This document shows, piece after piece, positions 13,372 through 52,019 of a stretch of 64,000 nt of DNA. A program made the translations under genes and the position numbers. The notes beneath the pieces are model-generated. The model was given only the letters and a program-made list of their open reading frames with translations. It searched no databases and was not told where the DNA came from. The stretch comes from Dehalococcoidia bacterium (GTDB lineage: Bacteria; Chloroflexota; Dehalococcoidia; Lucifugimonadales; Australimonadaceae). The number at the start of each line of letters is the position of its first letter. The stretch's first letter is position 1. The stretch spans positions 1,406,368 to 1,470,367 of the forward strand of contig OZ252088.1 in assembly GCA_965248065.1 (NCBI GenBank), written 5' to 3'.

Positions 13372-13516
13372 GTAACTGTTCAGTGTTGATGAGTTTAGGT
13401 TCGTGGTGAGCCTGTCGAACCACGCCGCCCGCCACCCCCCTCCGGTCCCCCTCCTTACCAAGGAGGGGCTAGGGGTGGTTCCGCTGGCATTCGCCTCACC
13501 AAGCCTGAACAGTTAC
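13372..13516. mobile_element. 145-bp MITE derived from the IS66-family element at 19682-21105
   Basis: Terminal inverted repeats GTAACTGTTCAG...CTGAACAGTTAC. Left end GTAACTGTTCAGTGTTGATGAG matches the IS66 right end GTAACTGTTCAGAGTTGATGAG. Flanking 8-mers GCCGAAGC and GCTGAAGC match at 7 of 8 positions. Confidence 0.65.
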
Positions 13517-30858: not shown

Positions 30859-30937
30859 GTCCTGAAGAGACCGGAGGGTCCGGCGGTCGCGAGTATAGCG
30901 GGTTTCCCCGGCGGCCACGGGAGGGACTCCCTCCGTC

Positions 30938-37250: not shown

Positions 37251-37344
37251 CTACCTGGCTCCTTCCATACTGCGACCGTCCTACTTTACGTGTGCGGATT
37301 ACGCCGGACCAAGATACGCCGATCTCGGTTGGCTCCCATCTTAG

Positions 37345-38598
37345 TTAATTGACGTTCAGATCGCCGACCCCGCTGATTTCGAGGAGGATATCCTTGACGT
37401 TCTGATCGAGCGCTCGCACCCGCCTGACGATGTCGCGTATCCCCTCGGCCCTTCCGTACCCGTACGAGTTCTCGTATCCCGCGATGATAACCGACTCGAT
37501 GAAAGCGGGGTCGACCATCATCTGGTCGAACTGCGCCTGCCAGTACTGCGTGACGTCGTCGGGTATGCCTGCCGGCATGATGAAGGCCCGGGAGATATCG
37601 GTGATGAGCAGGTTGCCCTGCAGCGCCGCGAGCTGGTCCTTGTTCACGTCGAGGCCGGGCAATTCGAGGAAGGACGGCAGGGGACCGGTGTGGCCGAGCC
37701 GCGCCAGGTATTCGTCGTCGATCGGGTTCTTCACGTAGAACAGGGGCACGAGGCGGCCTTGCTCGATCCACTCCGGGAAGAGGCGCATGGCGGTCTGCTC
37801 CGTACAGCGGCTGGTCACGTCCGTCTCGCCCCGGTCGAAGGCGGCCATGATCTCGGAGCTGCCGCCGTAGCCGTAGACCATCTTGAACGGCCCGCCGTTC
37901 GCCTCCATGAACTCCACGGCGGGATCGTTGCCCGGCGCGGTGGACCCCTTGGTGAGGGGCCGGCCCAGCGCGAGGACTTCTTCCCAGGATGTGGCCACGC
38001 TGCGGTCGACGCAGGTCACGTCGCCGCTGCCGGGTAGGCTCGGCGAGCCCAGGATGTAGATCTCATCCAAGTCGAAGTTGGGGATGTCGCCCACGAGCAC
38101 CTGGCGCTGGAACCATCGAGAGTGTACGGGGCCGATCGTCAGGCCGTCCGGTTCGGAGTCCAAGACTGCCTTCAGGCCGCGGTACTGGCCTGCGCCGGGC
38201 AGGTTCTGCACGATGAATTTGGTGCTATCCGGGAAGTAGCGCTCGCCGATTGCGGCCACCAGACGGCTGAATACGTCGAACCCGCCGCCGGGACTCGTCC
38301 CCGTGATGATCCGGATCGTCTTGCCCCCGAAGTACTCCTCAGCGTCGAAGCCAACAGGAGGCGGAACGGCGGTTGGCGTTGGCGTCGCCTGCGGCGCCGG
38401 GGTCGGCGTTGGCGTTGGCTGAGGGGTGGCGCCGGGCGGGAGCGCAGTGGGTATTGGCGTCGCGGTGGCTTGCGGGGCCGGAATGGGCGTCGCCGTGGGC
38501 CGTGGGGTTGGAGTTGGGTCGCTGCCGCCGCAAGCCACAACCGCCAGAGCAACGGCGAGGGCCATCGCGCAGAATCCGAAATATCGGCTGATGCGCAT
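37345..38598 (-). CDS. tctC: TctC/Bug-family substrate-binding lipoprotein, paralogue 1
   Basis: Start trimmed to MRISRYFG, which has an AGGAGGAAAG RBS. Lipobox VVAC-GG, ~70-aa Pro/Thr linker, TctC core TGTSPGGGFDVFSRL...VQNLPGAGQYRG...PDGLTIG. Confidence 0.8.
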   Translation of the reverse strand: MRISRYFGFCAMALAVALAVVACGGSDPTPTPRPTATPIPAPQATATPIPTALPPGATPQPTPTPTPAPQATPTPTAVPPPVGFDAEEYFGGKTIRIITGTSPGGGFDVFSRLVAAIGERYFPDSTKFIVQNLPGAGQYRGLKAVLDSEPDGLTIGPVHSRWFQRQVLVGDIPNFDLDEIYILGSPSLPGSGDVTCVDRSVATSWEEVLALGRPLTKGSTAPGNDPAVEFMEANGGPFKMVYGYGGSSEIMAAFDRGETDVTSRCTEQTAMRLFPEWIEQGRLVPLFYVKNPIDDEYLARLGHTGPLPSFLELPGLDVNKDQLAALQGNLLITDISRAFIMPAGIPDDVTQYWQAQFDQMMVDPAFIESVIIAGYENSYGYGRAEGIRDIVRRVRALDQNVKDILLEISGVGDLNVN

Positions 38599-39065
38599 CG
38601 CTTTCCTCCTACGCTCCGCCGGAACGTGGCGCTGTAAGCGCGTGCAAGAAACAGACGAATCCCATTGCTGGAATGTCATGCGGCAAGGTACCGGCGCAAA
38701 GCGCACATGTCAATCATCGTTTATCGGCAACCGTAGGGGCGGACCGACTGCGGCGCCCCCTCTCCGTCATTCCCGCGGCAGGCGGGGATCTCGCATTGCT
38801 CCTCCCCCGTCTGGAGACCCTTGCGTAGACCTCGAACTGGCGCGTGGCGAGCCTGTCGAATCATGGACCGGCTTGGGATTCTCGGGAGTGCAGAGGGCTT
38901 TGCCCTCTGCCGGGGGCGTGGGGGTGTCCCCTACACCTTACGGGGCGGGAGGGTGGGAAAGTTACGCAAAGGTCTCCTCTGCGGGGGACGCCGGTAGGAT
39001 AGCCGTCATTGGAGGATCGCGAGCCGGGGCTGGCGAGATGCCGGCCCCGGCTGATACGCATGCAG
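38599..39065. repeat. intergenic repeat mosaic
   Basis: Degenerate palindrome at 38769-38789 and hairpin CCTCCCCCGTCTGGAG. The segment 38850-38935 recurs at 40740-40850 and, inverted, at 55440-55540. Confidence 0.7.
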
Positions 39066-40331
39066 CTAGTTGACGTTGAGGTCGCCGACCCCGCTGATCT
39101 CCAGGAGGATGTCCTTCACGCTCTGATCGAGCGCCTGGACCCGCCTAACGATGTCGAGAATAGCCTCGCTCCTTCCGTACCCGTAGGAGTTCTCGTATCC
39201 CGCGATGATGACCGACTCGATGAAATCGGGGTCGATCATCATCTGGTCGAACTGCGACTGCCAGTACTGCGTGACGTCGTCGGGCACGCCTACCGGCATG
39301 ATAAACGCCCGGGATATCTCGCTGATGAGCAGGTTAGCCTGCAATGCTGTGAGCTGGTCCTGGTTCACGTCGAGGCCGGGCAATTCGAGGAAGGACGGCA
39401 GAGGGCCGGTGTGGCCGAGCAGCGTCAGATACTCGTCGTTCACGGGGGTCCTCACGTAGAAGAGGGGGACGAGACGCCCGTCTTCTATCCACTCAGGGAA
39501 GAGCCGAGGAACGACGGACGGGCCGCAGCGGCTGGTCACGTCCAGCTCGCCGCCGCGGTCGAAGGCGGCCATAATCTCGGAGGTGCCGCCGTAACCGTAG
39601 ACCATCTTGAAGGGCCCGCCGTTGGCTTCCATGAACTCCACGGCGGGATCGTTGCCCGGCGCGGTGGACCCCTTCCGCATGGGCCGGCCCAACGCGAGAA
39701 CTTCTTCCCATGACGTGGCGACGCTGCGGTCGACGCAGGTCACGTCGCCGCTGCCGATGGTGAAGCTCGGCGACCCCAGGATGTAGATCGCCTCCAAGTC
39801 AAAGTTGGGGATGTCGCCGACTATCGTCTGGCGCTGGAACCATCGAGAGTGCACGGGGCCAATCGTCAGGCCGTCCGGTTCGGAGTCCAAGACTGCCCGC
39901 AGGCCGCGGTACTGGCCTGCGCCGGGCAGGTTCTGCACCACGAGCCGCGTGTCTTCAGGGAAGTAGCGATCCACCGCCGCGGCCACCAACCGGCTGAATA
40001 CGTCATATCCGCCGCCGGGGCTCGTGCCCGTGATGATCCGGATCGTCTTGCCGCCGAAGTATTCATCGGCGTCAAAACCGGGCGGAGGCGGAACAGGGGT
40101 TGGCGTCGGTGTCGCCTGCGGGGCCGGAGTTGGCGTTGGCTGAGGCGGAAGGGTGGCGCCGGGCGGGAGCGCAGTGGGCGTCGGTACTGGAGTGGCGGTG
40201 GCTTCCGGGGCCGGAATAGGCGTCGCCGTGGGCCTTGGGGTTGGCGTTGGGTCGCTGCCGCCGCAAGCCACGACCACGAGGGTAATGGCGAGGGCCATCG
40301 CGCCGGGTCCAAAGTATCGGCTGATGCGCAT
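39066..40331 (-). CDS. tctC: TctC/Bug-family substrate-binding lipoprotein, paralogue 2
   Basis: Start trimmed to MRISRYFG at 40331. High identity to paralogue 1 by eye along the whole mature domain. Confidence 0.8.
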   Translation of the reverse strand: MRISRYFGPGAMALAITLVVVACGGSDPTPTPRPTATPIPAPEATATPVPTPTALPPGATLPPQPTPTPAPQATPTPTPVPPPPGFDADEYFGGKTIRIITGTSPGGGYDVFSRLVAAAVDRYFPEDTRLVVQNLPGAGQYRGLRAVLDSEPDGLTIGPVHSRWFQRQTIVGDIPNFDLEAIYILGSPSFTIGSGDVTCVDRSVATSWEEVLALGRPMRKGSTAPGNDPAVEFMEANGGPFKMVYGYGGTSEIMAAFDRGGELDVTSRCGPSVVPRLFPEWIEDGRLVPLFYVRTPVNDEYLTLLGHTGPLPSFLELPGLDVNQDQLTALQANLLISEISRAFIMPVGVPDDVTQYWQSQFDQMMIDPDFIESVIIAGYENSYGYGRSEAILDIVRRVQALDQSVKDILLEISGVGDLNVN

Positions 40332-41020
40332 CGCTCTCCTCCTACGCTCCGCTGACATCGCTGAAACGTGGCGCTCTAAGCGCGTGCAAGGACACGAATC
40401 CCATTGCTGGAATCTTACGCGGCAAGGTACCGACGCGAGCCGCGCATGTCAATTGTGGCTTATCGGCGGTTGCCGGGCGGACGGAGCTCGGCGGCCCTTC
40501 TCCTTTCGTCATTGCTTCGAAAATAGGCCTCTCGCAGAGGTAGTCAGCCGTACCAATCCGTCATTCCCGCGGAGGCGGAAATCCAGGTGTCAGCGCTCCG
40601 CTCGCCTATTTTCGTCGGTTATGGTGTGGGCCGGCAGGCCCACATGAGGGATTCCCGCGCAGGCGGGAACCTCGCCCCCTCCCGTTCCCCTCCTTACCAA
40701 GGAGGGGCTAGGGGTGGTTCCGTCTGAGAGACCTTTTGCGTAAACCTCAAACTGGTTCGTGGTGGGCCTGTCGGACCATGAACCAGCTTGGAATATTGGG
40801 GAGCGCAGAGGGGCGCTCCCCTCTGCCGGGGGCGTGGGGGTGTCCCTCACAACACAGTGGGTGGGTGGGTGGGAAGAGTTACGCCCGCCAGAAATAGGGT
40901 TACGCAAAGGTCTCGTGTCTGCGGGGGAGAGTTAGAGAGGGGGCTCCCTGCGGAGAGACCAGAAGCCGGGGCCGGCGAGAACGCCGGCCCCGGCTCTACG
41001 AGTCCGGCTGGTCGATGCAG
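40332..41020. repeat. intergenic repeat mosaic
   Basis: Palindromes at 40563-40582 (degenerate) and 40651-40670. Hairpin CCCCTCCTTACCAAGGAGGGGCTAGGGGTGGTTCC at 40687-40721. Confidence 0.75.
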
Positions 41021-42277
41021 CTAGTTGACGTTGAGGTCGCCCACTCCGCTGATATCGAGCATGATGTCCTTCACGTTCTGCTCGAGGTTGCGGACGAGAT
41101 CGACGATTTCGAGGATGTCCTCGGACCTGCCGTACCCGTAGGAGTCCTCGTAGCCCGCGATGATGACCGAATCGATGAAATCGGGGTCGACCATCATCTG
41201 ATCGAACTGCGCCTGCCAGTACTGCTTCACGTCGTCGGATACGCCCGCCGGGAGGAGGAACGCGCGGGAGATCTCGGTGATGAGCAGATTGGCTCGCAAT
41301 GCCGCAAGCTGGTCCTGGTTCACGTCGAGGCCGGGCAGATCGAGGAAGGACGGCAGCGGGCCGGTGTGGCCGAGCAGCGCCAGGTATTCGTCGTCCACGG
41401 GCTTCGTCTCATAGAAGATCGGCACGAGGCGGCCCTCCTCGATCCACTCGGGGAAGAGGCGCGGAGCGGTGCCCGGTCCGCAGCGGTTGGTCAGGTCGAG
41501 CTCCCCGCGGTCGAAGGCGGCCATGATCTCGGAGGTGCCGCCGTAGCCGTAGACGAGCTTGAAGGGCCCGCCGTTGGCCGCCATGAACTCCACCGCAGGC
41601 TCATTGCCCGGCGCGGTGGCCCCTTGGCGCAGGATGATGCCCTTGTCCAGGACTTCCTGCCAGGAAGAGGCGACGCTGCGCTGGATGCAGAATACGTCGC
41701 CGCCGACGGTGAAGCTGGGCGACCCCAGGATGTGGACCTCGTCGAAATCGAAGTTGGGAATGTCGCCGACGAGGGTCTGGCGCTGGAACCAGCGGGAGTG
41801 CACCGGGCCGATGGTCAGCCCGTCCGGCTCAGAGTCCAAGACTGCCTTCAAGCCGCGGTACTGGCCCGCGCCTGGAAGGTTCTGCACCACGAACCGTGTG
41901 TCTTCAGGGAAGTAGCGCTCCGCCGCTGCAGCCACCAAACGGCTGAACACGTCATACCCGCCGCCGGGGCTCGTGCCCGTGATTATCCGGATCGTCTTGC
42001 CGCCGAAATACTCCTCGGCGTCGAAGCCGGCGGGAGGCGGAACAGGGGTGGGCGTCGCCGTCGCCTGGGGCGCCGGGACTGGCGTCGCCGTTGGCTGAGG
42101 AGTGGCGCCGGGCGGGAGCGGCGTGGGTGTCGGTACGGGGGTCGCGGTTGCTTCCGGGGCCGGAATGGGCGTCGCCGTAGGGCGGGGGGTCGGCGTCGGA
42201 TCTCCGCCGCAAGCGGCGGCGACGAGGGCTATGGCGAGAGCAATCGCGCCAAGGCCGAAATATCGGCTGATGCGCAT
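41021..42277 (-). CDS. tctC: TctC/Bug-family substrate-binding lipoprotein, paralogue 3
   Basis: MRISRYFGLGAIALAIALVAAAC-GG. Same architecture as the other two, more diverged. Confidence 0.8.
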   Translation of the reverse strand: MRISRYFGLGAIALAIALVAAACGGDPTPTPRPTATPIPAPEATATPVPTPTPLPPGATPQPTATPVPAPQATATPTPVPPPAGFDAEEYFGGKTIRIITGTSPGGGYDVFSRLVAAAAERYFPEDTRFVVQNLPGAGQYRGLKAVLDSEPDGLTIGPVHSRWFQRQTLVGDIPNFDFDEVHILGSPSFTVGGDVFCIQRSVASSWQEVLDKGIILRQGATAPGNEPAVEFMAANGGPFKLVYGYGGTSEIMAAFDRGELDLTNRCGPGTAPRLFPEWIEEGRLVPIFYETKPVDDEYLALLGHTGPLPSFLDLPGLDVNQDQLAALRANLLITEISRAFLLPAGVSDDVKQYWQAQFDQMMVDPDFIDSVIIAGYEDSYGYGRSEDILEIVDLVRNLEQNVKDIMLDISGVGDLNVN

Positions 42278-42709
42278 CGGTTTTTCCTCCTGGGTTTACG
42301 CTGACATTACCTGGGCATGCGATACGTTATACGCATGCAAAGCCCGTTCGGATTCATCTGGTGAAATCTCGCGCGGCAAGGTACCGGCGCAAGGCAGGAG
42401 TGTCAATTGCCCCGCCCCCACTCGTCATTCCCGCTCCCCCTCCGTCATTCCCGCGCAGGCGGGAACCTCGCGCCCAACCCCCTCCCGTCTGCGGGAGGGG
42501 ACGCGCAAGCGCAGCGAAGCGCGGGGGAGGAGAAGCGGCGGCGCGCAGACCTCCCCCCGTCATAACCCGCCGCGCCCCACGTACCTGTAGGGGCGTCCCT
42601 TGTGGGCGCCCCCGCCCAATAGGTTCGCCGTCCCCAACGCTCCCGTCCCCTCCTTGCCAAGGAGGGGCTAGGGGTGGTTCCGTCTGCGCGGGGGAGGACA
42701 CCCACCCCC
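42278..42709. repeat. intergenic repeat mosaic
   Basis: Palindrome at 42447-42466, GC-hairpin module at 42481-42540, CCCCTCCTTGCCAAGGAGGGG module at 42647-42681. Confidence 0.75.
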
Positions 42710-42739
42710 TTGACGCCATCGACAACTCTATGTCATAAT
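42710..42739 (+). promoter_or_regulatory. near-consensus promoter TTGACG-N18-CATAAT with a TG extended -10
   Basis: TTGACG at 42710-42715 and TGTCATAAT at 42731-42739, in a locally AT-richer patch. Confidence 0.45.
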
Positions 42740-42787
42740 AACGTCACACGCCAGCATACACCCGACACACCGAACCCCCGAGCGGAC

Positions 42788-42826
42788 GAGCCGCCGGAGC
42801 CACAGCAAGGCCCGGCGGCTCTTTTC
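42788..42826 (+). terminator. intrinsic terminator-like hairpin with T-tract
   Basis: GAGCCGCCGG-(14-nt loop)-CCGGCGGCTC followed by TTTTCGTT. No coding gene lies upstream on this strand. Confidence 0.5.
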
Positions 42827-42861
42827 GTTCCGCCGGGCGCCGCCCACGGAAGGAGGACCCC

Positions 42862-44394
42862 ATCAAGCTCCCACGCCCCAAGGACACCCCCATCGACCTC
42901 TCACCCTACCGCGACGACCCCCTCGGCTTCGTCAAAGACATCCTCTCCGGATCAGGGACGCCCTACGCCAAGCAGGAAGAGCTGCTCCGCGCCCTCGTCA
43001 GCGAGAAGCGCCGCGTCTCCGTTGTCGGATGCAACTCCTCCGGCAAGGACTGGGCCGCCGCTCGCGCCATACTCTGGTGGATCGAGACACGCCCCAAAGC
43101 CAAGGTCATCGTCACCGGACCCACCCTCCGGCAGGTCAAGGAGATCGTCTGGGAGGAGCTCCGCGCCGCCCACGCCGCCGCCAAACACCGGCTCTCCGGC
43201 GCCGTCCGCGTCGGCGAGTACCGCGCCGGCCCCGACCGCGTCGGCCTCTGCATCACCTCCAACAACCAGCACAACCTCCAGGGCTTCCACTCACCCGAGC
43301 TCCTCGTCATCGTCACCGAGGCCCAGGGCGTCAAGCAGCCCTACTTCGAAGCGCTCAAACGCCTCAACCCCAAGAAGATGCTCCTGTTGGGCAACCCCCT
43401 CAGCCTCACCGGCGAGTTCTACGACTCCCATCACGGCAAGAGCCCCCTGTACGAGCGCGTCTCCATCTCGGCCTACGACTCCCCCAACGTCCAAGAGGGC
43501 CGCCTCGACGCCCTCCCCGGCCTCGTCACGCCCGAGGACATGGAGGAGCGCCGCCAGGAGTGGGGCCCGGACTCCCCCCTCTACATCGCGTCGATCCTCG
43601 GCCAGTTCCCCGAAGCCCTCGAAGACTCCCTCACCTCCCGCCCCCACGTGGACGCCGCCATCGAGCGCTGGCGCCGCGAGTCCCCTTCCGTCATTCCCGC
43701 TCTCTCTTCCGTCATTCCCGCGCAGGCGGGAACCTCGCAGCCCATCCCCCTCCTTACCAAGGAGGGGCTAGGGGTGGTTCCGTCTGCGGGAGGGGACGCG
43801 CGAGCGCAGCGAAGCGCGGGGGAGGCGGCCCCCCTCATCCCGCCCAGCGACGGCCCCCACCTCAACCAGCCCTGGCGCATGGGCGTCGATGTCGCCCGGT
43901 TCGGCAACGACAAGTCTGTCATCTGCCTCCGGCGCGGCGACCGCGTCGAGCGCATCATCGCCTTCGAGCGCAAGGACACCATGCGCCTCGCCGACGAGGT
44001 CCGCGAGCTCGCCGAGACCCTGCGCGTCCCCGCCGTCTTCGTCGACGAGACCGGTGTCGGCGGAGGCGTGGTCGACCGCCTGAAGCAGCTCCGCGTCCCC
44101 GTCATCGGCGTCGAGGGGGGAGGCAGGGCCTACCGCCCCGCCCAGTTCGCCGACATGCGGGCCGAGACGTTCTGGGAGGTGGCCCGCCGCCTCCGCGAGG
44201 GCCAGATGTCCCTCCCGCCCGACGACGACCTTGCGGGCCAGCTCCTCGCCCAGCGCTACGACATCTCGTCGGCGGGGCGCATCCACCTCGAAAGCAAGGC
44301 GACCCTCCGCCGCCAAGGCGTCCCCTCCCCCGACAAAGCCGACGCCCTAGCCCTCGCCTTCATGGAGCCCCCCAACATGAACGTATGGTTCTAA
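42862..44394 (+). CDS. phage terminase large subunit (orphan; no canonical start codon; carries a repeat insertion)
   Basis: The continuous frame runs from the stop at 42739-42741 to 44394. ATPase part has Walker A-like VVGCNSSGKD and Walker B-like LLVIVTEAQG. Nuclease part has MGVDVARFGNDKSV, VFVDETGVGGGV and SPDKADALALAF. No in-frame ATG, GTG or TTG occurs before 43378. GGAAGGAGGA lies 4 nt upstream of an in-frame ATC at 42862. Confidence 0.65.
   Translation: MKLPRPKDTPIDLSPYRDDPLGFVKDILSGSGTPYAKQEELLRALVSEKRRVSVVGCNSSGKDWAAARAILWWIETRPKAKVIVTGPTLRQVKEIVWEELRAAHAAAKHRLSGAVRVGEYRAGPDRVGLCITSNNQHNLQGFHSPELLVIVTEAQGVKQPYFEALKRLNPKKMLLLGNPLSLTGEFYDSHHGKSPLYERVSISAYDSPNVQEGRLDALPGLVTPEDMEERRQEWGPDSPLYIASILGQFPEALEDSLTSRPHVDAAIERWRRESPSVIPALSSVIPAQAGTSQPIPLLTKEGLGVVPSAGGDARAQRSAGEAAPLIPPSDGPHLNQPWRMGVDVARFGNDKSVICLRRGDRVERIIAFERKDTMRLADEVRELAETLRVPAVFVDETGVGGGVVDRLKQLRVPVIGVEGGGRAYRPAQFADMRAETFWEVARRLREGQMSLPPDDDLAGQLLAQRYDISSAGRIHLESKATLRRQGVPSPDKADALALAFMEPPNMNVWF
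43684..43830. repeat. repeat mosaic of about 147 bp inserted in frame inside the terminase gene
   Basis: Contains the half palindrome GTCATTCCCGC, the full palindrome at 43714-43733, the CCCCTCCTTACCAAGGAGGGGCTAGGGGTGGTTCC module at 43747-43781 and the GC-hairpin module at 43783-43830. It is translated as PSVIPALSSVIPAQAGTSQPIPLLTKEGLGVVPSAGGDARAQRSAGEA. Confidence 0.75.
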
Positions 44395-44637
44395 CCATGC
44401 CCCGCCGTTGCTTAACCCTCCGTCATTCCCGCGCCCTCATCCGTCATTCCCGCGCAGGCGGGAACCTCGCAGCGGCGCGACAGCGCCGCGGTCCCTCCCC
44501 CTCTCCCGTCTGCGGGGAAGAGCTAGAGAGGGCACCCCAACGAGACGGTTGCCCGGCGCAAGGTCCGCGCCTATCCTGCCAATCTCCTCTCCCTGCAATG
44601 GAGAAGAGGGCTAACGTGAGACCCAAGGAGGTCCGCA
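44395..44637. repeat. intergenic repeat mosaic
   Basis: Half palindrome at 44421-44432, full palindrome at 44446-44465, hairpin CTCCCGTCTGCGGGGAAGAG. Confidence 0.7.
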
Positions 44638-47466: not shown

Positions 47467-48342
47467 CTACGGGCGGACGCCGGAGCGCGCCGCTGCGGCT
47501 TCCAGGGCCCGCTTCGCAATCACCCGGGTCAGATGCTCCCGGTACTCCTCGGAGCCGTGGATGTCCGCCAGAAACTCCATGCCGTCGCTGGCCCTGCGCG
47601 ACGCCTTCTCGATGGACTCGGCATCGAGCGGCTTGCCGACCAGCACCCGCTCGCTTGCCTTGGCCCGCACCGGGGCTGGGCCCGCTCCGGTCACCGCAAT
47701 CCTGGCCCGCTCGCAGACGCCCCGCCGGTTGATCGTCACGGACGCCGCGACTCCCACGATGGCGAATCGCGACGCCTTGTTGGCGAACTTCACGTAGGCT
47801 GACCCTGTGCGCGGCGGGGCTTTGGCAAAGCGGACTTCGGTCAATATCTCCGTCGGTCCGAGGGTCGTTTCGTACGCATCGACAAAGAATCGCTCCGCCG
47901 AAATCGTCCTTGGCCTCGACCCGCCGACGATTCGCATTCTGGCGTCGAGGGCGAGGAGCGCAGCCGGGATGTCGGCCGCGGGGTCCGCGTGGGCCGCCGA
48001 GCCGCCGATCGTCCCCCGATTCCGCACTTGGAGATCGCCGACCACCCCCGCCGTCTCGACCAGCAGCGGTGCGGCGCCGGCCAGGATGTGCGACCTCTCG
48101 ATTTCGCAGTAGGTCGTTCCCGCGCCTATCGCGATGCCGTCGTCCAATCGGCGGATGTACGAAAGCTCCCCCAGCCGTCCGATGTCCACGACGTGCTCCG
48201 GCTGAACGAGCCGCAGCTTCATCGCCGGGACGAGACTCATCCCACCGGAGATTACCCGCGCATCGCCCTCGTGTTCGCGCATGAGCCGCACCGCCTGGCG
48301 CAGCGAAGCGGGCGCGTGGTAGGTGAATGCGGCGGGAATCAC
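47467..48342 (-). CDS. molybdopterin-dehydrogenase FAD-binding medium subunit (CoxM/CutM-like)
   Basis: GTG start. [42 protein letters not shown]. Confidence 0.85.
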
Positions 48343-48908
48343 GGACCCCCTCCCTGACCCTCCCCCTGGAAGGTGGAGGGGTTTATGTGGCTCTCCCCCC
48401 GGACGGAGGAGGCGAGGTTCCCGCCTACGCGGGAATGACGGATTGGGCGCATCGTCTCAGCCGCGGCGAGGGCAGAGGCGACGATGTTCTGGTATCCGGT
48501 GCACCGGCACATGTTTCCGCTCAACGCGGCCCGCACCTCCGGGTCGGTGGGGTCGGGGTTGCGCCGTAGGAACTCGTGCAGCGTCATCACCATCCCCGGC
48601 GTACAGAAGCCGCACTGGAGGCCGTGCTGCTCGTGGAACGCCTGCTGAATCGGGTGCAGCCGGTCGCCCTTCGCCAGCCCTTCGATGGTCGTGACCCTTG
48701 CCCCCTCGGCCTGGGCCGCGAACATTGCGCACGACTTCACCGCCGCGCCGTTCAGCAGCACCGTGCACGCTCCGCACTGGCTCGTATCACAGCCGATGTG
48801 CGTGCCGGTCAGCCGCAGTCTCTCGCGAATCAGGTCGACGAGCAGCTCGCGGTCTTCGACCTCAGCGGTGCGCCGTCTGCCGTTGACGGTGAGCGTTACC
48901 TCAATCAT
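48339..48908 (-). CDS. (2Fe-2S)-binding small subunit (CoxS/CutS-like) with a repeat-derived C-terminal tail
   Basis: [11 protein letters not shown] and CGFCTPGM...CRCTGY motifs. The last ~35 aa ([34 protein letters not shown]) are encoded by a repeat module containing the palindrome at 48417-48436. Confidence 0.85.
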
Positions 48909-50168: not shown

Positions 50169-50579
50169 CCTCCCGTAGACGACGCGTGATGCAAATTGAC
50201 GCGGGGGAGTGGGGGTCGATGAGGTCGAATCGACTCCCGTCGGCGCATCGCACGACCGCAATGGCTCGTTTTGATCCAAAGATGTCTCATCCATCTCACT
50301 CGTAACTTTCCCCGGCCTACGAGTGCGCGGGGGCTGTCTTACCGCTTCGGGTGCGCCACTAAGGTCTCATTTGGTCTCATTTGGTCTCATTTTACTCCTG
50401 AGCACGAGCCCGGGCGCCTTCGGCAGCGGGGTCTCGTGCGGAACCACCCCTAGCCCCTCCTTGGTAAGGAGGGGGACGGCGCGTAAACCAGTGTAGGGAG
50501 AGCGGGGGTGTTCGGGGAAGGGGCAAGTGTCAGTCTCCGCCGCGTCAGCAATTTCGCATCACGCGTCGTAGACGGGAGG
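50169..50579. mobile_element. non-autonomous TIR-bounded element (~0.4 kb), copy A
   Basis: Left end CCTCCCGTAGACGACGCGTGATGCAAATTGACGCGG (50169-50204). The complement of the right end is CCTCCCGTCTACGACGCGTGATGCGAAATTGCTGACGCGG (50540-50579). Internal GGTCTCATTT x3 at 50363-50392. No conserved ORF. Confidence 0.6.
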
Positions 50580-50580
50580 G

Positions 50581-50972
50581 GATTTTCGAGGCAATCCCTC
50601 ATGTGGGGCTCGCCTCACACCGCAACCGACGAAAATAGGGTGGCCGATACCTGGATTCCCGCCTGCGCGGGAATGACGGGGGAAGGACCGCGCCGCTGTC
50701 GCGCCGCTGCGAGGTTCCCGCCTGCGCGGGAATGACGGAAGGGGGCGCGGGGTGACGGGGGAAGTCTGCGCGTCGCCTCCCCCGCGCTTCGCTGCGCTTG
50801 CGCGCGTCCCCTCCCGTCTGTGCGGAAGGGGGATTTTCGAGGCAATCCCTCATGTGGGGCTCGCCTCACACCGCAACCGACGAAAATAGGGGGGCCGATA
50901 CCTGGATTCCCGCCTGCGCGGGAATGACGGGGGAGAGGGATCGCTGCGCTGTCGCGCCGCTGCGAGGTTCCC
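50581..50972. repeat. tandem copies of a ~250-bp composite repeat unit (second copy interrupted by IS30)
   Basis: Units start at 50581 and 50831 (GATTTTCGAGGCAATCCCTCATGTGGGGCTCGCCTCACACCGCAACCGACGAAAATAGG...). Palindromes at 50655-50674, 50714-50733 and 50906-50925. Confidence 0.8.
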
Positions 50973-51996
50973 TGAATCCACAAACGAAGTGCAACACCAG
51001 ATTAGGGTGTTGCCATGGAATACAGACAGCTCTGCATTGAGGAACGGTGTGAGATTGCCCGCTTACGCGCCAAGGGCTCCTCGGTCCGGCAAGTCGCTAC
51101 AGCTCTGGATCGCGCGGCATCGACCGTGGCTCGGGAGCTGAAGCGGAACGCGCTGCGAACGGACGGGTACCAAGCGTCGCCGGCCCAGGAGCGTGCCCGC
51201 GCGCGGCGCTGGACGGGGGCGCGGCTGGAACGGGACGAGGGGTTGCGGGAGCGGGTCTTGGCGGGCCTGAAGTGGGGGTGGTCGCCGGAGCAGGTCGCCC
51301 ATGAGATGCGCAGAGAGGAGGGCCGGACGGTGACCTCGGACGAGAGCATCTACCGGTTCGTCTACGCCCAGGCCGCGCGGCACAAGGACCATGATTGGCG
51401 GCGCTACTTGCCGAGGGCGAAGTGGAAGCGGGGAAGGCGGGGCCGCAGGGGGGGAAGCTCGGTTTCCTTCATCCCCCTCCGGAGGGCGCTCTCGGAGCGG
51501 CCGGCGGTGGCGGCCGACCGGCGGACCTTCGGGCACTGGGAGGCGGACACGATGCAGTTCGGGAGGTCGGGAGAGGTGGTGTTGGCCCTGCAGGAACGCT
51601 CCTCGCGCCTCTTGCTTCTCGCGCGTGCGCCGTCGAAGGAGGCGGGGCCGATCGCGGAGTCCATCGCCCGGATGCTGGGGCCGTTGCCGCCGGAGTTTCG
51701 CCAGACGGTGACCTTCGACAATGGGACCGAGTTCACCCGTCACTACGAGCTCCACCGGTTGGGCATCGAGACGTTCTTCTGCGACACGTACTCGCCGTGG
51801 CAGAAGGGGGGAGTGGAGAACGCGATCGGCCGGCTGCGGCGGTTCCTGCCGCGGGGGACGAATCTGGGGGAGGTGTCGGATGAGCGGTTTGCGCTGATCG
51901 GGCAGGCGTACAACAATACGCCGCGCAAGTGCCTGGGCTACCGGACACCGGCGGGGGTCGTCGAGGAGCAGGTGTTGCACTTCAAATGTGGATTCA
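50973..51996 (+). mobile_element. intact IS30-family insertion sequence
   Basis: IRL TGAATCCACAAACGAAGTGCAACACC at 50973-50998. The IRR complement TGAATCCACATTTGAAGTGCAACACC at 51971-51996 matches at 23 of 26 positions. Single transposase ORF. Confidence 0.85.
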
Positions 51997-52019
51997 CCTT
52001 CCCGCCTGCGCGGGAATGA
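51015..52019 (+). CDS. IS30-family DDE transposase
   Basis: N-terminal HTH (RAKGSSVRQVATALDRAASTVAREL), HWEADT, TFDNGTEF, YSPWQKGGVEN catalytic blocks. The ORF reads through IRR, and its TGA (52017-52019) lies in the flanking palindrome GGGAATGA. Confidence 0.85.
   Translation: MEYRQLCIEERCEIARLRAKGSSVRQVATALDRAASTVARELKRNALRTDGYQASPAQERARARRWTGARLERDEGLRERVLAGLKWGWSPEQVAHEMRREEGRTVTSDESIYRFVYAQAARHKDHDWRRYLPRAKWKRGRRGRRGGSSVSFIPLRRALSERPAVAADRRTFGHWEADTMQFGRSGEVVLALQERSSRLLLLARAPSKEAGPIAESIARMLGPLPPEFRQTVTFDNGTEFTRHYELHRLGIETFFCDTYSPWQKGGVENAIGRLRRFLPRGTNLGEVSDERFALIGQAYNNTPRKCLGYRTPAGVVEEQVLHFKCGFTFPPARE

Follow-up and report, generated by a model that had tools for sequence, protein, structure and literature searches.

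We analysed a window of 64,000 nucleotides from the genome of a Dehalococcoidia bacterium (Chloroflexota; assembly GCA_965248065.1, contig OZ252088.1, positions 1,406,368 to 1,470,367 of the forward strand), to which all coordinates below refer. The window contains a forward-strand gene for a protein with the fold of a phage large terminase (TerL), in which an ATPase domain is connected to a nuclease domain by a hinge. Within the hinge, 49 codons at 43684–43830 consist of the same short modules that are found in intergenic DNA of the window. The reading that we favour, and consider probable, is that a small mosaic of the genome's own GC-rich palindromic repeats occupies this hinge as a tolerated in-frame spacer. 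Colonisation of genes in frame by repetitive extragenic palindromic (REP)-type sequences is already documented and is best known from Rickettsia. What is notable here is the phylum, the host gene, and the comparative record of repeated, frame-preserving occupation of one hinge.

A repeat mosaic in the reading frame of a TerL-like gene

The forward-strand frame is open from 42739 to the stop codon at 44392–44394, and the open reading frame (ORF) was taken as 42862–44391, encoding 510 residues. The segment 43684–43830 comprises 147 bases, or 49 codons, contains neither a stop nor a frame change, and is translated as PSVIPALSSVIPAQAGTSQPIPLLTKEGLGVVPSAGGDARAQRSAGEAA. In the protein it is preceded by ...DAAIERWRRES and followed by PLIPPSDGPHLNQPWRMGVDVARFG, and the peptide across the hinge junction reads ...WRRESPSVIPALSSVIPAQAGTSQPIPLLTK.

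The modules of the segment all lie on the forward strand. A 16-nt direct repeat, CTTCCGTCATTCCCGC, is present at 43685 and 43706, with a spacing of 21 nt. The first copy is a half REP (43689–43700) made up of a CGTC tag and the 5' arm of the stem (CGTCATTCCCGC), and it belongs to a 21-bp unit that is missing from the closest relative, P0013. The second copy continues into the full palindrome. Specifically, the complete CGTC REP (43710–43736) contains the CGTC tag at 43710–43713, the palindrome ATTCCCGC/GCAG/GCGGGAAC at 43714–43733, and a CTC tail, and it matches the REP search pattern with zero mismatches at 43711–43734. Next comes a module designated module C (43746–43779), in which the hairpin CCCCTCCTT-ACC-AAGGAGGGG is followed by CTAGGGGTGGTT; its positions 43749–43779 form the 31-mer CCTCCTTACCAAGGAGGGGCTAGGGGTGGTT. 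The 5' part of a GC-hairpin module (CCGTCTGCGGGAGGGGACGCGCGAGCGCAGCGAAGCGCGGGGGAGG), recognised by pattern match, occupies 43780–43825, and a variant of it is present in most paralogues of the gene.

A preliminary description, made from the letters of the window, had claimed that these 49 codons are modules of the intergenic type read in frame, and both the translation and a pattern search bear this out. With up to three mismatches allowed across the 64-kb window, the REP 24-mer GTCATTCCCGCGCAGGCGGGAACC gives 19 matches, the module C 31-mer 5, and the GC-module 33-mer 4, compared with 0 for each in shuffled sequence. The in-gene modules have 0 mismatches to the commonest versions in the window. 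Nearly all other copies lie in intergenic mosaic arrays with varying module order; the same modules are found, differently ordered, at 42423–42690, in the gene itself (43684–43830), at 44419–44540, at 50400–51010, and elsewhere. Two of the arrays directly flank the gene on the same strand. The upstream one (42423–42690) consists of a half and a full CGTC REP, a full-length GC-hairpin module, and module C with one mismatch, and the downstream one (44419–44540) of a half and a full CGTC REP plus more modules. The exact module C 31-mer is found at 13450, 40689, 42649, 43749, and 50442.

The open frame of a single copy is unremarkable, because three of six reading frames are free of stops across the 147 bp, as are 28% of random strings of 49 codons with this composition. 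The remarkable part is the comparative pattern, and this also refines the boundaries. Homology to the paralogues ends at 43683–43700 and resumes at 43830–43833 in some of them and already at 43780 in others, because the latter carry a version of the GC module. Since a GC-module variant is common to most paralogues, the lineage-specific segment is 43684–43779. Thus the 147-bp repeat segment of the preliminary description stands as delimited, but only its first part is specific to the lineage. Judged by its distribution, the GC module is apparently an older, shared occupant of the hinge, upstream of which the lineage-specific part was inserted.

The 510-residue product matches PHROG_2 (large terminase; E = 4.8e-37). 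Pfam gives only sub-threshold matches, to Terminase_6N (13.5 bits, under the cut-off) and AAA_19, and PADLOC and NCBIfam give no match. The structure was modelled with AlphaFold2 from an alignment of 106 family sequences. The model has a mean predicted local distance difference test score (pLDDT) of 87.4 and a predicted template modelling score (pTM) of 0.82, and its best Foldseek matches are the large terminases Sf6 gp2 (E = 4e-21), HK97, D6E, and T4 gp17. The ATPase domain (residues 1–274; 42862–43683) carries a Walker A motif ending in SGKD and a Walker B motif ending in VTEA. The remainder of the hinge (PLIPPSDGPHLNQ), the RNase-H-fold nuclease domain with D343, D395, and D491/D494, and the stop codon lie at 43831–44394. 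In the model, the insert (residues 275–323) is located between the last ATPase helix (260–273) and the first nuclease strand (338–343), which bears the catalytic Asp343. Residues with pLDDT below 50 are confined to the two termini and to 281–283 and 286–321, inside the insert. The host protein is therefore modelled as a genuine TerL fold, with the insert predicted to be disordered between the ATPase and nuclease domains, which is where the preliminary description had placed it.

Occupation of the hinge across the family

A scan of species-representative genomes detected 17 related loci (L001–L017) in three Dehalococcoidia metagenome-assembled genomes (MAGs), five or six per genome. Most copies are at orthologous positions (window–L008–L013, L005–L011, L006–L012, L003–L004–L010, and L007–L016).

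The alignment to relatives supports the proposal that the segment is a lineage-specific insertion. In the 106-member alignment, R269 and G341 (numbering of the window protein) served as anchors for measuring the hinge. Between them lie 13–18 residues in 27 of the 106 members (for example WKASAPESGEPWVM) and 71 in the window protein, and the number reaches 122 in other members. The wider stretch from V262 to the catalytic Asp, D343, was measured in 42 relatives on viral contigs from IMG/VR, at 25–33% identity; it has 21–31 residues in 41 of them, 52 in one, and 82 in the window protein. Because these homologues have short hinges, the objection that an equivalent segment is a general feature of terminases fails, in a comparison made by hinge length.

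The same data bear on the converse derivation, namely that the segment is original to the terminase and the intergenic copies are fragments of the gene. The gene is indeed multi-copy and fragmentary copies exist, but the repeats far outnumber the gene copies, and the module C 31-mer occurs in Thiomargarita, Ignavibacteria, and Gracilibacteria MAGs, where the gene was not seen. In addition, the REP core is identical to a Neisseria master sequence, and viral and basal homologues are without the segment. The distribution effectively refutes this derivation, and we regard it as hardly credible.

The occupied hinges differ widely in content. In about 48 of the 106 homologues, the hinge has at least 40 residues and reads as translated repeats of several families. 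The REP is read in all three forward frames (VIPAQAGT/VVPAEAGT, RHSRESGNP, and SFPR) and from the reverse strand (AGMT and AGTT), and further repeat families contribute peptides such as CHSERSAAEPRNL...SPRDVSTSLNMT and PSAGGERERSDARGG. The positional orthologues L008 and L013 have hinge mosaics entirely different from that of the window copy. The closest database protein, P0013, which is 96% identical and comes from another assembly, shares this mosaic except for precisely one half-palindrome unit of 7 codons, which it lacks. Elsewhere in the family alignment, length variation is limited to the N-terminus and the C-terminal tail. One clade (e.g. P0089, P0098, and P0120) has an acidic, proline-rich C-terminal extension of 40–70 residues that ends in a second ...[LF]G[IV]W copy, P0077 has the REP peptide VVPAEAGTS within its C-terminal tail, and in P0064, P0066, and P0071 an N-terminal helix-turn-helix domain (HTH_3) is fused to TerL.

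At the DNA level, the hinge could be anchored in 16 copies (the window, L001–L013, L015, and L016). Their hinges are between 105 and 276 nt long, in 13 different lengths, and in every copy the length is a multiple of 3. The dN/dS ratio is 0.07–0.19 in both domains of intact copies, including that of the window, and the window copy keeps 59 of 59 invariant family residues, with a GC content at third codon positions of 0.89. These values show purifying selection on the flanking domains. Because all 16 lengths are divisible by 3 and dN/dS is this low, we conclude that in-frame repeats are tolerated in a selected gene.

A region of high-copy repeats is a classic cause of mis-joins, and a collapsed or chimeric repeat could in principle have been joined into the gene during assembly. 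However, P0013, encoded in a different assembly on a 3.17-Mb contig, has the same mosaic in the same place with one 21-bp unit less, and analogous in-frame arrays are present in 16 copies from three other MAGs, one of which is a single chromosome record. Preservation of the frame is likewise not expected of an artefact, which makes this explanation exceedingly improbable.

The copies provide indications of how the hinge changes. L006 and L007 are 99.7% identical in the 5' half of the gene and 92.5% in the 3' half, while L004 and L013 show the reverse pattern (94.4% and 99.6%). From these patterns and the synteny, the copies appear to be old, and paralogues within a genome appear to exchange sequence by gene conversion. 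The 60-nt composite of half and full REP in the window gene is 96.7% identical to arrays located just 3' of paralogous genes. Because of this identity and the gain or loss of whole 21-bp units, recombination and slippage probably contribute to turnover beside any true transposition.

Taken together, we propose that modules land in the hinge, or arrive there from other arrays by ectopic recombination, and that the array is then transcribed and translated with the gene, adding an unstructured spacer of about 49 residues. Both folded domains would be left intact, and the protein would tolerate the spacer because these domains are untouched. Purifying selection on the gene would let a hinge variant persist only if it contains no stop and its length is divisible by three, a filter that is easily passed. 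The hinge would thus be a site that readily accepts repeats and has done so many times in the family, turning over through new module insertions, gain and loss of the 21-bp half REP, deletions, and ectopic recombination or gene conversion with arrays and paralogues. The spacer itself would be neutral. The preliminary description had suggested that the repeats are mobile and tolerated in linkers. Dispersal and tolerance are upheld by the in-frame mosaics and the purifying selection, whereas mobility is deduced from the distribution of the repeats.

Several points weigh against this proposal. The analysis brought to light neither an enzyme nor a mechanism by which the repeats might move, and no search was aimed at REP-associated tyrosine transposase (RAYT) or IS200-type genes; CGTC REPs are reported to be without a dedicated transposase (PMC3733652). 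The insert has neither terminal inverted repeats nor a target-site duplication. The peptide V[IV]PA[EQ]AGTSQP is near-identical in clades that are just 50–60% identical overall, and therefore either the insertions are recent and independent or homogenisation is ongoing. Expression of the gene is putative: it apparently starts at a non-canonical codon, behind a leader of repressive appearance, and there are degraded copies among the paralogues. Finally, repeat peptides were sought in 446 kb of related Dehalococcoidia DNA, scored where the peptide lies inside a long ORF with coding-type composition on both sides, in a sample centred on TerL loci and therefore biased. All internal in-frame cases but one were in TerL-like genes, an enrichment for which tolerance alone is not an obvious explanation. 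The second host gene, for whose like the preliminary description had recommended searching, encodes an aspartate carbamoyltransferase (L017, 11576–12805; OTCace_N and OTCace). It contains an in-frame reverse-strand REP between the Pfam-matched segments, in the region of the Asp/Orn-binding domain.

The concentration of cases in one gene family raises the possibility that the hinge array is exploited, as a tether of variable length, as an internal ribosome-binding site and start for the nuclease alone, or as a hot spot for swapping ATPase and nuclease halves. A repeat-filled hinge is present in every copy of four related genomes, and nearly all in-frame repeat cases are in this family. Published intragenic REPs are also frequent in genes for DNA-repair ATPases and nucleases (PMC3733652). 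Within module C (43759–43776), AAGGAGG is followed 8 nt downstream by an in-frame GTG at 43774, a possible start of a nuclease-only product of about 206 residues. The histories of paralogues differ on either side of the hinge (L006/L007 and L004/L013). However, content, length (35–92 residues in close copies), frame, and repeat orientation are not conserved, and viral and basal homologues are without an array. The Shine-Dalgarno-like AAGGAGG is one arm of the hairpin of module C and would be buried in it, module C is absent from most paralogues, and the similarity breaks at the hinge may just mark alignment failure. We therefore consider exploitation of the hinge unlikely, and a tolerated spacer remains the preferred reading.

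A lone gene unit among metabolic genes

Although the protein has the TerL fold, the prophage context implied by the name "terminase" in the preliminary description does not hold. The surroundings within about 10 kb are made up of metabolic genes (Rieske/LigXa oxygenases, a TctA transporter, solute-binding proteins, an amidohydrolase, short-chain dehydrogenases, and CoxS/CoxM-like proteins) and one IS30-like transposase, and no other phage gene is found within 10 kb. A prophage terminase was therefore rejected as an identity, the gene being a lone, multi-copy gene among metabolic genes. No tRNA gene that could serve as an integration site was found near any copy. A search for an empty site of the unit, with the gene upstream of L009 as the probe, returned only a repetitive gene family in non-syntenic contexts, and no description of a lone or orphan multi-copy terminase unit was found in the searchable literature.

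Some of the neighbouring genes carry repeats as well. The IS30-like transposase (51006–52019; matching HTH_38 and, weakly, rve) lies amid repeat arrays, and its end, FPPARE-stop, is a REP read in the reverse frame. A CoxS-like [2Fe-2S] subunit ORF on the reverse strand (48342–48473) has a C-terminal tail of about 35 residues, ending in GEGQGGGP, that is made of a REP and another repeat module, so that the repeats between the coxS-like and coxM-like genes are apparently read as a C-terminal extension. Directly upstream of the TerL-like unit, 37343–42291 on the reverse strand contains three tandem paralogues with about 80% nucleotide identity, each encoding a putative solute-binding lipoprotein of about 420–460 residues without a Pfam match; they are kept in the syntenic L008 and L013.

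Nucleotide homology among the paralogues is confined to 42698–44400 and ends at the stop codon. It begins at 42698–42709, and the 5' edge of the unit, conserved in all paralogous copies, is formed by a promoter-like site at 42710–42739 (+; TTGACG, an 18-nt spacer, and TG-n-CATAAT; 10 of 12 matches plus the TG). The leader contains a terminator-like hairpin with a U-tract at 42788–42829 (+; GAGCCGCCGG/CCGGCGGCTC, then TTTTCGTT; folding z = −3.6) and a second, downstream stem that pairs with the Shine-Dalgarno sequence. The leader stem is conserved in 15 of 15 aligned copies; more distant relatives also have a hairpin in this position, which in L031 shows compensatory changes. No match to the leader or to the repeats was found in Rfam at gathering or permissive thresholds. 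The start was taken from conservation at 42850–42864 (+), where the Shine-Dalgarno sequence AAGGAGGA (42850–42857) is followed by CCCC and, at 42862, by an ATC in frame; before 43378 the frame contains no ATG, GTG, or TTG. This context is kept in 14 of 15 aligned copies (with ATT in L013; L003 is the exception), and in three of them a 30-nt deletion recreates the same start context and spacing. The protein would thus be made from the ATC codon. The layout of the 5' region recalls a phage late promoter and terminator or the expression control of insertion sequences.

The absence of a standard start codon before 43378 and of further phage genes within 10 kb could also mean that the gene is a decaying phage remnant, with repeats piling up in dead DNA and the open frame a matter of luck. 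Several paralogues are indeed truncated, internally deleted, or frameshifted (L012, L014, L016, L017, and the pre-hinge regions of L013 and L015), and the insert is stop-free in half of its six frames anyway. Against this, dN/dS is 0.07–0.19 with every invariant residue kept, all 16 hinge lengths are divisible by 3 at 13 distinct values, the copies conserve an ATC or ATT start and, at a constant distance from it, a strong Shine-Dalgarno sequence, and the two-domain model is confident. A decaying remnant is thus very unlikely.

Compared with phage TerL proteins (Sf6 gp2, HK97, D6E, and T4 gp17), the window protein has the same two-domain architecture of an ATPase and an RNase-H-fold nuclease, with the acidic residues D343, D395, D491, and D494 invariant in the family. 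In contrast to them, it is encoded by a lone chromosomal gene with five or six copies per genome and no portal, capsid, or small terminase gene nearby, and its long, disordered hinge is unlike the 21–31 residues of phage TerL proteins. The Walker motifs also differ. All 106 chromosomal members have SGKD and VVTEA (residues 61–63 and 152–153; 43042–43050 and 43315–43320), whereas GK[ST] and DE are the motifs of viral relatives, apart from one viral contig with a GKD/SE arrangement. The change looks like a coordinated swap of Mg-binding residues.

A basal relative, P0075, with a 14-residue hinge, is encoded in a phage-like cluster of about 8 kb (L030, 8343–16666) together with an M78 peptidase, an HTH repressor, a short portal protein adjoining TerL, and two Laminin_G_3 proteins. 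A cluster of this kind is a possible source of the lone copies. On these predicted features, the host seems a more unusual object than its insert: a lone TerL-like unit in which a promoter-like site precedes a leader of repressive appearance and an ATC start, and in which the Walker residues are swapped. Instead of being left over from a phage, the gene might be the only one of a long-lived, undescribed chromosomal element that Dehalococcoidia carry in multiple copies, with the hinge and the flanking arrays functionally tied to the protein. We think this improbable. If true, such an element would comprise a promoter and a terminator-like leader, followed by a gene that starts at ATC and encodes a TerL-like ATPase-nuclease with swapped Walker residues, and the arrays would be the protein's DNA substrate or recognition sites, a recombination site for domain shuffling, or a device for making a separate nuclease.

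Comparison with known repeat systems

CGTC REPs are defined by the CGTC tag, an 8-bp stem beginning with AT, a 4-nt loop, and a short tail with the consensus CCA (Di Nocera et al. 2013, PMC3733652). In the in-gene copy and in other window copies, CGTC is directly 5' of the stem, and four window copies have the perfect 8-bp stem and 4-nt loop ATTCCCGC/GCAG/GCGGGAAT. The 3' arm of the in-gene copy, GCGGGAAC, has a mismatch at the first stem pair. The tail reads CCA in the copies at 50654, 50905, and 55562 (GGGAATCCAGG) and CTC in the in-gene copy, in other GGGAAC variants, and in a GGGAAT copy at 30935 with a perfect stem. The copies at 30935, 50654, 50905, and 55562 of this Chloroflexota genome contain the exact 21-mer ATTCCCGCGCAGGCGGGAATC, which in three of them runs on into CCA. 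The same 21-mer is the master sequence, present in 241 copies, of the REP doublets that form hairpins (REPINs) in N. meningitidis (bioRxiv 10.1101/2021.07.10.451892). By these features the palindrome can be classified as a CGTC-1-type REP, apart from the in-gene tail and the usual arrangement as dimers. The published survey reports CGTC repeats from five phyla, Chloroflexi not among them, and describes them as lacking a dedicated transposase (PMC3733652). The present copies thus extend CGTC-type REPs to a Dehalococcoidia genome.

Module C has a different distribution. Its exact 31-mer is also present in MAGs of Thiomargarita (5 contigs), Ignavibacteria, Gracilibacteria, deltaproteobacteria, and gammaproteobacteria (L018–L029), where it forms an isolated GC-rich island amid AT-rich unique DNA. 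Module C therefore appears to be a tiny cross-phylum element; no description of it was found in the literature. A search of the 49-residue insert peptide against the protein database gave one candidate, which was not significant.

Two other classes of element were considered for the insert and rejected. A miniature inverted-repeat transposable element is not indicated, because no inverted repeat joins the ends of 43684–43830 and no direct repeat, that is, no target-site duplication, is present at the junctions. An intein or self-splicing intron was rejected on the lack of an Rfam match and of a folded domain and on the strict maintenance of the frame, which favours translation over splicing. 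Moreover, 49 low-complexity residues are far below the size of an intein.

The array also resembles interspersed mosaic elements, namely the bacterial interspersed mosaic elements (BIMEs) of E. coli and the neisserial intergenic mosaic elements (NIMEs). These are extragenic by definition. In both, REPs are combined with other short motifs in variable order (PMC3733652). The same holds in the window, where such arrays are found upstream of, inside, and downstream of the gene. The in-gene array differs from BIMEs and NIMEs in that it is translated and lies within a selected ORF.

The repeats of Neisseria are closer in sequence. CGTC-1 has been equated with Neisseria dRS3, and clustered CGTC elements are reported for Neisseria and Wolbachia (PMC3733652). 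The window copies share with dRS3 and REPINs the CGTC tag, the 8-bp stem starting with AT, the 4-nt loop, and clustering with other repeats in intergenic mosaics. They differ in that the in-gene copy ends in ...GGGAAC CTC, with one stem mismatch and another tail, and in that window copies are mostly singletons or direct, head-to-tail pairs of half and full REP 20–21 nt apart, not head-to-head dimers. Inverted pairs are few in the window (e.g. 40560/40648), and the in-gene array holds one complete REP, compared with the two inverted REPs less than 130 bp apart, folding into a hairpin and accompanied in the genome by a cognate RAYT (an IS200-like Y1 transposase), that define the REPIN-RAYT system.

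The preliminary description had invoked the Rickettsia palindromic elements (RPEs), which are inserted in frame in protein genes (Ogata et al. 2000 as reviewed in PMC10969869), and the analogy is closer than it supposed. CGTC-1 and CGTC-4 have been equated with RPE-6 and RPE-4 of R. conorii, so that the core of these RPEs is a CGTC-tagged REP of the same superfamily as the window palindrome (PMC3733652). Like the window repeats, RPEs are short palindromes that are also intergenic, lie in frame in functional genes, are translated, and are thought to occupy surface or linker regions; the insert of the TerL-like gene is likewise a translated, in-frame palindromic insertion in a functional ORF. 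However, the host of the window repeats is a member of Dehalococcoidia rather than Rickettsia. An RPE, of a kind confined to Rickettsia, is one unit of about 100–150 bp with its own conserved peptide, whereas the insert combines three or more unrelated modules, and in this gene family one site holds many different mosaics. We therefore do not file the insert as an RPE, given the other organism and the mosaic structure; the CGTC-REP core is what is documented as shared.

A precedent for the position of the insert is the set of intragenic GTAG and CGTC REPs already published by Di Nocera et al. (PMC3733652). These encode 20–30 residues, or 43–82 in clusters (20–82 overall), and were suggested to be neutral since they lie in flexible linkers or loops, with many of them in replication and repair genes (PMC3733652). 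As in the window, they occur as singles, dimers, or clusters wholly within ORFs and are frequent in ATPases and nucleases that act on DNA, but the window insert is hosted by a TerL-like ATPase-nuclease instead of a Uvr or Rec protein. For annotation, the case is a reason to regard peptides such as VIPAQAGT, RHSRESGNP, and PLLTKEGLGVV as repeat-derived. The comparison is also deeper here than for the published cases, as it follows the turnover of one hinge through dozens of paralogues and orthologues and demonstrates that the frame is maintained. The family thus amounts to an unusually well-resolved natural experiment in which a single hinge is filled, emptied, and refilled with varied mosaics while the frame is always kept and the flanks remain under selection, and it provides direct comparative evidence that selfish intergenic repeats can give rise to disordered linkers and to variation in protein length.

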